Notes: generated by a model from the letters alone, not told the origin. 9,418 nucleotides of DNA from a virus (IMGVR_UViG_2778261154_000013:1-9418), one strand, 5' to 3'. Shown: positions 1,165-4,798, counted from the first letter of the stretch. A program made the numbers and translations.

Positions 1165-1190
1165 CAAAAAAGCCCGCTGATAGCGGGCTG
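1165..1190 (-). terminator. Rho-independent terminator ending the repressor transcript
   Basis: Perfect 8-bp stem AGCCCGCT(1171-1178)/AGCGGGCT(1182-1189) with a 3-nt loop, followed on the minus strand by a U-run (+ strand A-run 1166-1170). Lies 30-55 nt downstream of the repressor stop (1220). No T-run on the + side, so it is unidirectional. Confidence 0.8.
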
Positions 1191-1219: not shown

Positions 1220-1639
1220 TTATTCCGGTGGGGGATTATCTTTAATCCTGCCTCTCAAATATTTTTCTACATACTCATCGATTTCTTTTAGCCGGACTTC
1301 AAATAGCTCAATCATTCGTTGTTGTTCTGAGCCCGGTAGCTGGTTAAACAACTCAAGAAGTTTTCGTTGGGATTCATTTAACCACAATTCAGAAGATTCC
1401 TGTTCTCCAAAGAGGAGCTCAGGAGGAGATATGCCAAGTGCCTTTCCCAATACGACAGCGTCATGTACTCCAACATTTCTGCTGCCCGCCTCATAGTTAC
1501 CTATACGCGATTGCGTCCATCCGCAGATTTCAGCAAGTTTTCCTTGAGATAAACCAAGCTTCTGCCTGCGCTCTTTAAGACGCATTGCAATTTTGTCATT
1601 GAGCCTACTAGCGGCAATTTTTTCGTTTTCTTTTTCCAT
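1220..1639 (-). CDS. Prophage repressor, XRE-family helix-turn-helix, no S24 peptidase domain
   Basis: 139 aa; HTH signature LGLSQGKLAEICGWTQSRIGNYEAG; ATG at 1639 with SD AAGGA. Divergent from the Cro-like gene, the classic cI/cro arrangement. Too short to carry a LexA-like autocleavage domain. Confidence 0.85.
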   Translation of the reverse strand: MEKENEKIAASRLNDKIAMRLKERRQKLGLSQGKLAEICGWTQSRIGNYEAGSRNVGVHDAVVLGKALGISPPELLFGEQESSELWLNESQRKLLELFNQLPGSEQQRMIELFEVRLKEIDEYVEKYLRGRIKDNPPPE

Positions 1640-1735
1640 TGCATCCTTGTATCACGAATCGTGATTTACATAAAACACAAAACAGCTTGACTATATAACA
1701 CAAGGTGTGTTTAAAATTGTCATCGGAGGTTTTCA
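1640..1735. promoter_or_regulatory. Divergent immunity operator/promoter region (pRM-like leftward, pR-like rightward)
   Basis: Perfect palindrome ATCACGAaTCGTGAT at 1651-1665. Second palindrome AACACAaggTGTGTT at 1697-1711, of the same AACAC..GTGTT family as the oL sites. Putative rightward -35 TTGACT at 1687-1692 and -10-like TAAAAT at 1712-1717 (spacer about 19 nt, so the alignment is uncertain). SD GGAGG at 1725-1729. Confidence 0.6.
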
Positions 1736-1960
1736 ATGAACAAAATTTCAACATATCGAAAACAGCTTGGGCTGTCTCAAAGACAACTTGCTGTTCAGTT
1801 AGGGTGGATACAAAGCCGACTGGCAAATTACGAAGCAAATTTTCGTACCCCTGGACTAGAGGAGTGCAGAAAAATTGTTTCTACCCTTAATCGGCTTGGC
1901 GCTCATTGTGGACTTGACGATGTATTCCCCCAGACGGTAAGCATAGCGAAAACAGCATAG
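1736..1960 (+). CDS. Cro-like small HTH regulator (XRE family)
   Basis: 74 aa; HTH LGLSQRQLAVQLGWIQSRLANYEAN; SD GGAGG 6 nt upstream; first gene of the rightward operon, divergent from the repressor. Confidence 0.85.
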   Translation: MNKISTYRKQLGLSQRQLAVQLGWIQSRLANYEANFRTPGLEECRKIVSTLNRLGAHCGLDDVFPQTVSIAKTA

Positions 1961-1973
1961 GAGCGGTTGATTC

Positions 1974-2396
1974 ATGAAAATCAGGCATGAGCACATCGAA
2001 TCAGTGTTGTTAGCCCTGGCAGCCGAAAAAGGGCAGGCGTGGGTCGCTAACGCAATTACTGAAGAATATCTGCGCCAGGGGGGCGGCGAATTGCCCCTTG
2101 TACCAGGCAAGGACTGGAACAATCAGCAGAATATCTATCACCGTTGGTTGAAAGGTGAAACGAAAGCGCAAAGGGAAAAAATTCAGAAGCTGATCCCAGC
2201 AATTCTGGCAATCCTTCCGCGCGAGCTGCGTCACCGACTCTGCATCTTCGATACCCTGGAACGCCGTGCATTACTGGCGGCGCAGGAAGCGTTGAGTACG
2301 GCAATTGATGCGCATGATGATGCAGTCCAGGCCGTTTACCGGAAAGCGCATTTCAGCGGCGGCGGGTCTTCCGACGATTCTGTCATTGTTCATTAA
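1974..2396 (+). CDS. ydaT: CII-like regulator, Rac YdaT-like protein
   Basis: 140 aa, same length and position (immediately after the Cro-like gene) as Rac YdaT; the sequence matches my recollection of YdaT (MKI.HEHIESVL.ALAAEKGQAWVANAITEEYLRQGGGELPLVPG...). SD AGGAG upstream. Confidence 0.7.
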   Translation: MKIRHEHIESVLLALAAEKGQAWVANAITEEYLRQGGGELPLVPGKDWNNQQNIYHRWLKGETKAQREKIQKLIPAILAILPRELRHRLCIFDTLERRALLAAQEALSTAIDAHDDAVQAVYRKAHFSGGGSSDDSVIVH

Positions 2397-2459
2397 GCAA
2401 AAGTTTCCATGCTGTTTGTGCTTATTCTAAGCAACCGGGCAGCATCATACGGGGCAATT

Positions 2460-3608
2460 ATGGCCGCATTACCATACATGCAACTGTACATAGCTGATTA
2501 CCTGGCTGACACCATGCATTTGTCAGCAGAGGAGCACGGCGCGTATTTGTTGCTGATGTTCAATTACTGGCAAACAGGAAAGCCAATACCCAAAAACAGG
2601 TTGGCAAAAATTGCCCGTCTGACTAACGAGCGATGGGTTGATGTTGAACCATCCTTGCGGGAGTTTTTTTGTGATAACGGCGACGAATGGATGCATCTTC
2701 GGATTGAGGAAGATCTGGCATCTGTCAGAGAAAAATTAACCAAAAAATCAGCCGCAGGAAAAGCATCTGTTCAGGCCAGAAGAAGCAGAAAGGAAGCAGA
2801 TGTTCAAACAAAACAAGAGAGAAATTTAACAGGTGTTCAAACAGATGTTGGAGTGATGTTCGAACATGATGCCAACACAAAGGCAACTAATAAAGATACA
2901 GATAAAGATCTAAAAACAGATCTAACCCATCCCAAACCCTTCCCTTCCGGAAGGGAGTTTCGGGATTTTGTGGCTGGAGTGCTTGAGGGGAGATTATCTG
3001 GCGGTACTGCAGCGGAATTTTGTAATTCTGCGGTGGTTGCGTTGCAGGCTGCTGGCCTGGATGTCTGTCGTGAGTATCCGGTGCCAGAGCGTGGTGACGG
3101 TTGCGGAGGGCGGATTGATATCGTCGTGACTGACAGGAACGGTGTCCGGTGTGGGATCGAGCTTGACCGAAATTCTCCGCGACAGAAATCACTGCTCAAA
3201 ATCGGTGCTGTTGAAACCGGGATATGTGTCTTGCGGCGCAGTGATATCGCAAGGCACACCGAGCAGGGAATTCTGGTTATCGGTGGGGCTGTTCGCCAGA
3301 AAAAATTTGACCCGTTGTCAGTTGATCTGCCCGACTGGTTGCCAGAAACACTCTGGCATGAGTGGGTCCAGTTCAGGCAGGCATTGCGAAAACCGATTCG
3401 AACGGAGCAGGGCGCTAACGGGGCGATACGGGAACTGGAAAAATTCCGTCAGCAGGGTTTTACACCTGAGCAGGTGATTCGACACAGCATCGCCAATGAA
3501 TACCAGGGTCTGTTCGCGCCGAAAGGTGTTCGGCCTGAGACGTTGCTCCGACAGGTTAACACCGTCTCGTTGCCGGACAGTGCGATCCCGCCAGGCTTCA
3601 GGGGGTAA
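2460..3608 (+). CDS. Replication initiation-associated protein, DUF1376 (YdaU-like) N-terminal domain, 382 aa
   Basis: ORF 2409..3608; start preferred at ATG 2460 (SD GGGG, about 6-nt spacing), since ATG 2409 has no SD. N-terminus YMQLYIADYLADTMHLSAEEHGAYLLLMFNYW is the DUF1376 hallmark. Sits in the lambda O position, directly before the DnaC-like gene. Confidence 0.8.
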   Translation: MAALPYMQLYIADYLADTMHLSAEEHGAYLLLMFNYWQTGKPIPKNRLAKIARLTNERWVDVEPSLREFFCDNGDEWMHLRIEEDLASVREKLTKKSAAGKASVQARRSRKEADVQTKQERNLTGVQTDVGVMFEHDANTKATNKDTDKDLKTDLTHPKPFPSGREFRDFVAGVLEGRLSGGTAAEFCNSAVVALQAAGLDVCREYPVPERGDGCGGRIDIVVTDRNGVRCGIELDRNSPRQKSLLKIGAVETGICVLRRSDIARHTEQGILVIGGAVRQKKFDPLSVDLPDWLPETLWHEWVQFRQALRKPIRTEQGANGAIRELEKFRQQGFTPEQVIRHSIANEYQGLFAPKGVRPETLLRQVNTVSLPDSAIPPGFRG

Positions 3609-4375: not shown

Positions 4376-4798
4376 ATGGCGAAACCTTTTACTCCCGAAC
4401 AGCGGGAAGAACTGAAGACGCGAATTGTGGAACTCGTGCATCAGGACGGTCGGGTCACGATTCGGCAGTTGTCAGATGAAACAGGTATCAGTCGTGCGTC
4501 TGTCGGTCGCTTATGCATGGAACTGGTCGCAAGTGGTGATGTATATAATTCTGGCTACGGCTTATTCCCGTCTGAACAGGCTCGCAAGGACTGGCAAAGC
4601 GCCCGCAAAAAACTCTTGAGAGTAAAGGTGAGGAAACCGGTTGTTGTTGATCCGGACCTTATCTGGTCATTACCTGACGGAGAAATACGCCGCTACGACA
4701 GGCGCCTGAATATAATCTGTCGCGAGTGCCGGAAAAGCAAGGTTATGCAGCGTGTGCTGGCGTTCTATCAGGGTAACTTTCAGGAGGTGATGGCGTGA
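4376..4798 (+). CDS. Hypothetical protein with N-terminal winged-helix-like DNA-binding region
   Basis: 140 aa; SD AGGAGG 7 nt upstream; N-terminal segment VTIRQLSDETGISRASVGRLCMELVASGDV resembles a wHTH; stop overlaps the start of the next gene. Confidence 0.7.
   Translation: MAKPFTPEQREELKTRIVELVHQDGRVTIRQLSDETGISRASVGRLCMELVASGDVYNSGYGLFPSEQARKDWQSARKKLLRVKVRKPVVVDPDLIWSLPDGEIRRYDRRLNIICRECRKSKVMQRVLAFYQGNFQEVMA

Follow-up and report, generated by a model that had tools for sequence, protein, structure and literature searches.

In a 9,418-nucleotide stretch of viral DNA (IMGVR_UViG_2778261154_000013:1-9418, all of which we call the window) we identified a phage repressor together with a small gene for the protein that most likely inactivates it. 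Judged from its sequence, the 139-residue protein encoded at 1220-1639 is the lysogeny repressor of a lambdoid prophage and belongs to the short GfoR/GfhR/DicA class; as it carries no Peptidase_S24 domain, its domain content predicts that it cannot cleave itself on RecA filaments. On homology and gene order its cognate antirepressor is most likely a 70-residue GfoA-family protein encoded at 8623-8835, and we consider it probable that this protein inactivates the repressor. The features that carry this reading are as follows.

1220-1639, minus strand: immunity repressor, 139 residues (open reading frame with Shine-Dalgarno sequence, Pfam, AlphaFold2 model, homology, family alignment)
Parts of the repressor: XRE-type helix-turn-helix (HTH) at about residues 14-77, linker at 78-88, C-terminal two-helix domain at 89-133
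8623-8835, plus strand: candidate antirepressor of the GfoA family, 70 residues, with a GTG start after GGAGG (hhalign, BLASTP, synteny, co-occurrence, AlphaFold2)
8907-9418, plus strand: irsA homologue (DUF1367), 54% identical to Gifsy-2 IrsA, running off the end of the window

The repressor and its relatives

A six-frame list of open reading frames placed the repressor gene at exactly 1220-1639 on the minus strand, with an ATG start codon preceded at 5 nt by an AAGGA Shine-Dalgarno sequence, and an upstream stop codon rules out an N-terminal extension. The identical reading frame in E. coli VL40 is annotated in RefSeq as a 'helix-turn-helix domain-containing protein', and the only Pfam matches were to XRE-type HTH domains (HTH_3 at residues 21-75, E = 5e-13; HTH_3 and HTH_31 spanning 18-75). 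Peptidase_S24 gave no Pfam match in the repressor even at E <= 1; the positive control, mEp213 cI, matched PF00717 with an E-value of 3e-25. The AlphaFold2 model, made with 33 family members (mean predicted local distance difference test score, pLDDT, 86.7), is all-helical with zero strands, five HTH helices being followed by a lower-confidence linker (78-88) and by helices at 89-99 and 103-133. An S24 fold, built mostly of beta-strands, takes about 120 residues; the repressor has about 55 residues C-terminal to its HTH, all predicted to be helical. A tblastn search of the window with the S24 domain of mEp213 cI returned a best E-value of 1, so there is no frameshifted S24 remnant there, and the Enterobacterales homologues among the matches listed were mostly 119-143 residues long, so that a short repressor is the norm of the family and not a truncation.

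The preliminary description of this DNA had given the protein as a 139-residue immunity repressor with an N-terminal XRE HTH, a short helical C-terminus and no S24 domain, and had pointed to Gifsy-type antirepressors for its induction; all of this was supported by the searches above, including those for a degenerate domain, and by the full-length homologies to GfoR, GfhR and DicA below. It had further held that an Ala-Gly/Cys-Gly cleavage site is missing, which is true of the inter-domain linker (78-88), where neither dipeptide is present, and too broad for the protein as a whole, which has Cys-Gly at 39-40 and Ala-Gly at 51-52. Both lie within the HTH fold and, there being no S24 domain, are irrelevant.

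The repressor aligned over its full length with Salmonella GfhR (35% identity over 129 residues, E = 2e-21) and GfoR (33% over 125 residues, E = 2e-19) and with DicA of the E. coli Qin prophage (29% over 129 residues, E = 2e-15), so that its homology to characterised Gifsy/DicA-type members includes the C-terminal helical domain; its C-terminus also matched that of Gifsy-2 GtgR (46% over 35 residues, E = 1e-6). For GfoR and GfhR we used open reading frames on IMG/VR contigs whose termini exactly match the first and last codons given by the tagging primers that Lemire et al. list in their Table S1. Size and architecture are likewise those of the class (about 130-155 residues, an N-terminal XRE HTH, no peptidase), and so, as far as the sequence can be read, is placement: the gene lies in an immunity region, with a divergent cro-like gene and candidate operators over the rightward and leftward promoters (PR and PL). 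Lemire et al. (2011, PMC3121763) named DicA and RacR as relatives of the Gifsy repressors; K-12 RacR, which we tried as a homologue of the window repressor, was rejected (BLASTP E = 2.1). The Gifsy repressors are not cleaved on induction; small antirepressors remove them from DNA (PMC3121763). Rem is an antirepressor of DicA (Ragunathan et al. 2023, PMC10448788), and the non-cleaved repressors of the class are inactivated by GfoA, GfhA, GftA or Rem (PMC3121763, PMC10448788). A peptidase motif was likewise noted as absent from PaaR2 of CP-933P (PMC8630535).

The family alignment has a conserved C-terminal block, LLxLFxQLPxxEQxxMIxxFxxRLKEIDxYVEKYLRGR, and the family motif in the repressor C-terminus is LLELFNQLPgSEQ..RLKEID.YVEKYLRGR. 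Residues 12-80 share 58% identity, over 72 residues, with the mEp213 cI HTH and nothing past residue 80 aligns, mEp213 cI being a 213-residue protein with a genuine Peptidase_S24 at residues 85-206; an HTH this similar joined to a different C-terminal module indicates that the C-terminal domain has been swapped. In CI of Salmonella phage SPN3UB (L010 640-1059) the HTH resembles that of GtgR, whereas the C-terminus has 51% identity with that of the window repressor; SPN3UB carries a GfoA-family gene, not one of the GftA type. From these alignments the DNA-binding module and the C-terminal module have evidently been exchanged independently. Foldseek searches of the repressor model against the PDB found HTH-domain matches only, leaving the C-terminal hairpin with no precedent there beyond a loose analogy to SinR.

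The reading frame at 8623-8835

The preliminary description had stated that no antirepressor gene is evident in the window, which proved wrong: the reading frame at 8623-8835 on the plus strand belongs to the GfoA family and lies directly 5' of the irsA homologue, which begins 72 nt after it. In Gifsy phages irsA is immediately downstream of the antirepressor gene, which in Gifsy-2 is gftA (PMC3121763). RefSeq and protein-cluster look-ups name the product 'hypothetical protein' only. An hhalign comparison of its family with the GfoA family gave a probability of 96.6% and an E-value of 6e-10 over 71 columns, and BLASTP against GfoA itself gave an E-value of 7e-5 over 39 residues. SPN3UB gp59 serves as a bridge between the two, with 38% identity to GfoA (E = 2e-15) and a tblastn match to the reading frame (8e-5). 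We rebuilt the GfoA sequence from primers and IMG/VR loci (N-terminus MSNSALQK, C-terminus RRLGYRVTPPSD); the exact 40-nt gfoA primer had no match in IMG/VR, and its 20-nt core was matched.

Gene order points to the same family. In SPN3UB and pAEv1818 the homologue of the reading frame lies, as X, within an operon of the form terminator-LexA box-dinI-X-irsA, and the SPN3UB dinI promoter is an exact match to the Gifsy-1 (14028) primers of Lemire et al.; in Chris1 the homologue also follows terminator-LexA box-dinI, but the next gene is not irsA. The junction between the reading frame and irsA in the window resembles those of SPN3UB and pAEv1818, and the frame has the features of the GfoA-family slot, being a small reading frame directly 5' of irsA in the nin region, with the non-AUG start often seen there. 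The frame is unbroken and is found with identical sequence on 922 contigs; conserved residues are kept in homologues across genera, and its protein cluster includes Shigella flexneri members.

The AlphaFold2 model of the product (pLDDT 79) has four beta-strands and a C-terminal helix. Foldseek found nothing for it in BFVD at E <= 0.001, Pfam gave no match, and PHROGs returned only phrog_1813, of unknown function. Rem was rejected as a direct homologue: BLASTP found nothing, hhalign gave an E-value of 0.013 and a probability of 3% over the C-terminal 24 residues, and a resemblance seen by eye was not supported. Rem showed a weak link to GfoA (hhalign E = 9e-4). GftA was also rejected (hhalign E = 0.5); the control comparison of Rem with GftA fails as well (E = 0.16), which indicates that such tests do not work for proteins this tiny unless they are run with the right family.

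The family of the reading frame and the repressor C-terminal domain tend to occur together. Among 50,697 phage records tblastn found the former in 10; the latter (residues 85-139) occurs in 19, and eight of the 10 carry both, including the five closest full-length homologues of the repressor. The hypergeometric P value is 3e-27 over all records and 1e-7 over the 185 irsA-bearing ones, values that overstate the association given that the phages concerned are phylogenetically non-independent. SPN3UB and FSL SP-016 have only the C-terminal domain in common with the window repressor and yet carry the antirepressor family, a pattern which suggests that the C-terminal domain is the co-inherited, and possibly interacting, partner. 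The prophage of an O145:H28 strain has the same immunity region and other nin-region genes, and it keeps the order hok, reading frame, DUF1367. Taken together, the alignments and the synteny indicate that the product of 8623-8835 is a GfoA-family homologue in the canonical Gifsy antirepressor slot.

Candidate operators, the hok locus and possible routes to induction

Around the repressor gene the genes are ordered as in a lambdoid immunity region: the repressor on the minus strand, then a Cro-like HTH protein and a YdaT/CII-like protein on the plus strand, followed by a YdaU-type replication initiator and a DnaC-like loader. The features of the region are listed here.

1736-1960, plus strand: Cro-like HTH protein, 74 residues, divergent from the repressor; K-12 YdaS and DicC were tried as homologues and showed no similarity
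1974-2396, plus strand: YdaT, CII-like regulator, 98% identical to YdaT of K-12 Rac, at the right edge of the swapped cassette
1697-1711: candidate operator OR1, AACACAAGGTGTGTT, which would lie within the spacer and -10 of the rightward promoter
1674-1688: candidate operator OR2, AACACAAAACAGCTT, with a degenerate right half, abutting the PR -35 and 23 bp from OR1; weak taken by itself
1651-1665: candidate operator OR3, a perfect palindrome, ATCACGAATCGTGAT, 12-26 nt 5' of the repressor start codon and 23 bp from OR2
1687-1715, plus strand: candidate PR, TTGACT-N17-TTTAAA, predicted to drive the cro-like gene and ydaT; paralogous to PL
1099-1113: candidate operator OL1, AACACAATTTGTTTT, overlapping candidate PL
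1122-1136: candidate operator OL2, AACACGTAATGTGTT, overlapping candidate PL, with the OL1 and OL2 centres 23 bp apart
1123-1095, minus strand: candidate leftward promoter PL, TTGACA-N17-TTTAAT
1171-1189, minus strand: hairpin resembling an intrinsic terminator, directly after the repressor stop codon

A search for AACAC-N5-GTGTT found three sites, a number attained in 0 of 200 shuffles. With A(A/T)CAC-N5-GTG(T/A)T and at most one mismatch there were four matches (1099-1113, 1122-1136, 1651-1665 and 1697-1711), all four in the two regulatory regions on either side of the repressor gene, and a degenerate fifth site at 1674-1688 was assigned as OR2 by reading the sequence and by paralogy with the PL region. 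Centres of the candidate operators are 23 bp apart on both sides of the gene. The PL (minus strand, ATAAAACACATTACGTGTTGACATAAGAAAACAAATTGTGTTTAAT) and PR (plus strand, ATAAAACACAAAACAGCTTGACTATATAACACAAGGTGTGTTTAAA) regions, at 1095-1123 and 1670-1715 respectively, are clear paralogues over about 45 bp, ATAAAACAC...TTGAC(A/T)-N17-TTTAA(T/A), and the candidate operators stand at matching relative positions in both, each promoter being overlapped by two sites. On this reading the layout of putative OL and OR sites at PL and PR is lambda-like.

DNA comparison with K-12 Rac showed that a cassette at about 1079-1967 (OL, repressor, OR and the cro-like gene) is a non-homologous replacement, Rac homology ending at about 1078 and restarting at 1968, at the ydaT start, with 97% identity. 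As YdaT is 98% K-12-like but the repressor and the Cro-like protein are unrelated to those of Rac, the prophage is Rac-like and heteroimmune. The label 'Rac-like' in the preliminary description thus suits the prophage, which in E. coli VL40 sits at the ttcA site, and does not suit its repressor, which is unrelated to K-12 RacR.

In Gifsy-type phages one LexA-controlled promoter serves both dinI and the antirepressor gene, which are transcribed together. At the position of their LexA box and dinI the window has a different feature.

8132-8435, plus strand: hok-type toxin locus and terminator region (Hok reading frame at 8189-8344)

This locus is 92% identical to hokD of K-12 Qin (L003 15031-15289), with homology ending at 8435. 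The gene after hokD in Qin is rem and the gene after hok in the window is the GfoA-family reading frame, the two being of different families; by gene order, then, E. coli prophages show a recurrent arrangement of hok followed by a known or putative antirepressor gene, without LexA control. The window has no dinI homologue, and its matches to LexA-box patterns (CTGT-N8-ACAG and CTG-N10-CAG, sought here and in the VL40 prophage, which is nearly identical) were at chance level, none of them near 8623-8835, so that we saw no sign of co-transcription with dinI from a LexA-repressed promoter. Nor was there a convincing sigma-70 promoter on the plus strand in 8440-8620, or a match to the phage operator pattern near the reading frame. 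In VL40 the first 41 kb of the prophage (L001) hold no LexA box, and in its right part (L004) such boxes stand 5' of a gene in one place only, before a dinI-like gene at the right end. This DinI-like gene (L004 18691-18998) follows two tandem boxes, CTGTTTATCCATACAG and CTGTATAAAAACACAG, and adjoins an ipaH effector gene; no homologue of GfoA, GftA or Rem was detected after it. A LexA-controlled antirepressor gene had been proposed as something to look for: a candidate antirepressor gene was found, and for this gene a hok locus stands where the LexA box and dinI would be.

Since hok replaces the LexA box and dinI, the antirepressor is probably not under SOS control in cis, and SOS coupling is probably absent or supplied in trans. 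The reading frame might be expressed from a promoter that our search did not recognise, or by read-through after derepression, for which FsoA of Fels-1, controlled by the phage repressor, is a model (PMC3121763); or it might be silent, with antirepressors acting in trans. In Qin, mitomycin C fails to induce the DicA-repressed promoter (PMC10448788).

The mechanism we propose starts from domain content, homologies, synteny and co-occurrence, as observed, and from these we infer the operators, the binding between the two proteins and the regulation of the antirepressor gene. The XRE HTH of the repressor would bind A(A/T)CAC-N5-GTG(T/A)T operators, 23 bp apart, over PL (1095-1123) and PR (1687-1715), and the C-terminal two-helix domain (89-133) would mediate oligomerisation. 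The small antirepressor would bind the repressor stoichiometrically and pull it off DNA, and induction would depend on some further signal, on read-through after derepression (a positive feedback) or on cross-acting antirepressors of co-resident prophages. Several points weigh against this. Identity to GfoA is low and the pairwise BLASTP match short; GfoA, GfoR and GfhR were rebuilt from IMG/VR contigs and primer termini and not taken from the ATCC14028 record, and the published C-terminal primer for gfoA differs from the IMG/VR contigs by a small indel. Both genes belong to the early region of enterobacterial lambdoid phages, which bears on their co-occurrence as the relatedness of those phages does. 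The operators were assigned by symmetry of sequence only. With no LexA box, dinI or convincing sigma-70 promoter 5' of it, the reading frame may be silent or a relic.

This last point leads to an alternative in which there is no dedicated inducer at all, the bistable switch of repressor and Cro-like protein flipping stochastically or under general stress and the 70-residue frame being an unexpressed relic. Besides the missing LexA box/dinI promoter module and the want of a clear promoter, it can draw on Gifsy-1, where a single -10 change in PdinI-gfoA suffices to make the prophage of S. Typhimurium D23580 non-inducible (PMC5322425), and on Qin DicA/DicC and CP-933P PaaR2/YdaS, which switch spontaneously and independently of RecA, dicBp not being induced by mitomycin C (PMC10448788, PMC8630535). 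We nonetheless think it unlikely: the frame is intact, recurs unchanged on 922 contigs and has homologues across genera with conserved residues, it stays linked to the repressor type despite mosaic changes elsewhere, and Rem is a functional antirepressor in the same hok-adjacent arrangement (PMC10448788).

That another, larger antirepressor of the Rha, ORF6N/KilAC or KilA-N type, comparable to the Ant-like protein of P22, acts from elsewhere in the prophage seems to us distinctly improbable. VL40 does have a Rha-family gene just left of the window and ORF6N and KilA-N genes right of the Q region, the ORF6N gene being present in the O145:H28 relative too; however, no action of such proteins on GfoR/DicA-type repressors is known, the O145:H28 prophage shares the immunity region and lacks the Rha gene, and in the VL40 prophage, as described above, LexA boxes stand 5' of a gene only at the dinI-like one, after which no antirepressor homologue was detected. 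Removal of the repressor by host proteases (Lon, ClpXP) or by another post-translational route without a phage partner is very improbable indeed. It is a general possibility for small repressors, with nothing specific to recommend it beyond the fact that antitoxins of neighbouring prophage toxin-antitoxin systems are Clp substrates (PMC8630535); no degron was identified, and the homologous Gifsy repressors are stable and inactivated by binding (PMC3121763). A cryptic or degenerate LexA-like self-cleavage, for which the two dipeptides could be cited, is effectively refuted by their position inside the HTH, the helical C-terminus, the absence of any S24 match or remnant and the short lengths usual in the family.

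Returning to inactivation by the GfoA-family protein, we offer one extension of it tentatively and with more doubt than belief, namely that the antirepressor of this E. coli lineage has lost its connection to SOS, hok/sok having replaced the LexA box and dinI, and that the C-terminal domain of the repressor, not its HTH, reads antirepressor specificity. If so, induction would answer a cue other than SOS, or only antirepressors acting in trans from other prophages, and lambdoid repressors would follow a two-module 'operator code plus inducer code', the chimeric SPN3UB CI being suggestive of C-terminal specificity.

Prophage setting and known systems

The window is 99.9% identical to a prophage in E. 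coli VL40 that adjoins ttcA, the Rac attachment site, and the immunity region by itself also matches other O145 strains and one O157:H7 strain. Several observations were made along the way. The VL40 prophage arms adjoin ttcA at one end and yecD/aspS at the other, which suggests a rearranged or hybrid element. Outside the window it has Rha-family, ORF6N-domain and KilA-N-domain genes (L001 18025-18873, 29619-30182 and 33433-33930), domain types that occur in other phage antirepressors or regulators, and a ParD/ParE pair near the lysis genes. The YdaU-type replication initiator of the window (2409-3608, 399 residues) contains an in-frame insertion of about 377 bp at 2923-3299, absent from K-12 ydaU, in which a nuclease-like motif (GRIDIVV...GIELD) was seen by eye; VL40 differs from the window by 1 bp in length, and there RefSeq splits ydaU into two pseudogene pieces. 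Directly after the DnaC-like gene, a DUF977 protein (4376-4798) has a winged-helix N-terminus and falls in the PHROG family 'Ren-like exclusion protein'. PP818812.1 (L009, 'Actinobacillus phage vB_Apl-pPE4') encodes proteins 96-100% identical to those of the window (IrsA 100%, the 70-residue protein 96%) in the same order of hok, reading frame and DUF1367, and the host given for it, Actinobacillus, seems open to doubt.

The window adds one repressor to the GfoR/GfhR/DicA class, which is published and well described, and one protein, of 70 residues, to the GfoA family; the established picture (Lemire et al. 2011, Ragunathan et al. 2023) is unchanged. What goes slightly beyond the literature consulted is the apparent replacement of the SOS-sensing module by hok and an antirepressor family that apparently tracks the C-terminal domain of the repressor. 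For prophages that carry this repressor, a response to DNA damage by repressor self-cleavage is not to be expected; their inducibility would depend on the gene for a 70-residue 'hypothetical protein' and on its control, which bears on whether antibiotics that trigger SOS mobilise these prophages, including that of O145:H28. The pairing of antirepressor family with repressor C-terminal domain provides a testable rule for predicting cross-talk between prophages.

Among known systems, the window repressor shares with Gifsy GfoR and GfhR its size class, an HTH with a helical C-terminus, its position in the immunity region and the motif LLEL[FY]xQLP...RLKE[IL]D...KY[LM]xxRI, and in both a GfoA-family gene lies directly 5' of irsA in the same prophage. 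HTH and putative operators are not the same, however (the two are heteroimmune), the antirepressor gene of the window has no preceding dinI or LexA box, and the host is E. coli or Shigella, with integration at the Rac site (ttcA) in the near-identical VL40. Qin resembles the window in the full-length alignment of DicA (29%), in an antirepressor gene directly 3' of a hokD-type locus and in that no LexA control is described for rem, and differs in the gene that follows, which is ydfU in Qin and the irsA/DUF1367 homologue here. Gifsy-2 GtgR is likewise a short, non-cleavable repressor with an LLxLFNQLPxxE C-terminal motif, and Gifsy-2 has the operon dinI-antirepressor-irsA, with the IrsA 54% identical to the window's; the HTH of GtgR has no detectable similarity to that of the window repressor, though, and GftA is of a separate antirepressor family (hhalign E = 0.5 against that of the window reading frame).

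With lambda CI, P22 C2, mEp213 cI and LexA the repressor has in common the XRE HTH, genetic position, role and a layout of OR and OL with spaced operators, as far as the candidate sites go, but where these proteins have Peptidase_S24 it has a predicted helical hairpin of about 50 residues. K-12 RacR and, by its description, CP-933P PaaR2 are also short HTH-only immunity repressors of Rac-like/YdaST-type prophages. K-12 Rac is close in YdaT (98% identity) and not detectably similar in its repressor; CP-933P has only a distantly related YdaT (8bt1, E = 8e-6), and its PaaR2 is the repressor of a paaR2-paaA2-parE2 operon, in which a toxin-antitoxin pair lies downstream. The window repressor gene is followed by the terminator at 1171-1189 and then the PL region, with no toxin-antitoxin genes after it. 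Finally, in SinR of B. subtilis a helical domain at the C-terminus likewise comes after an XRE HTH, and Foldseek aligned 105 columns of the repressor model to 1b0n_A; with a root-mean-square deviation of 8.4 A and no sequence kinship beyond the HTH, this is an analogy only. The small antagonist SinI binds the C-terminal domain of SinR, through which SinR oligomerises.

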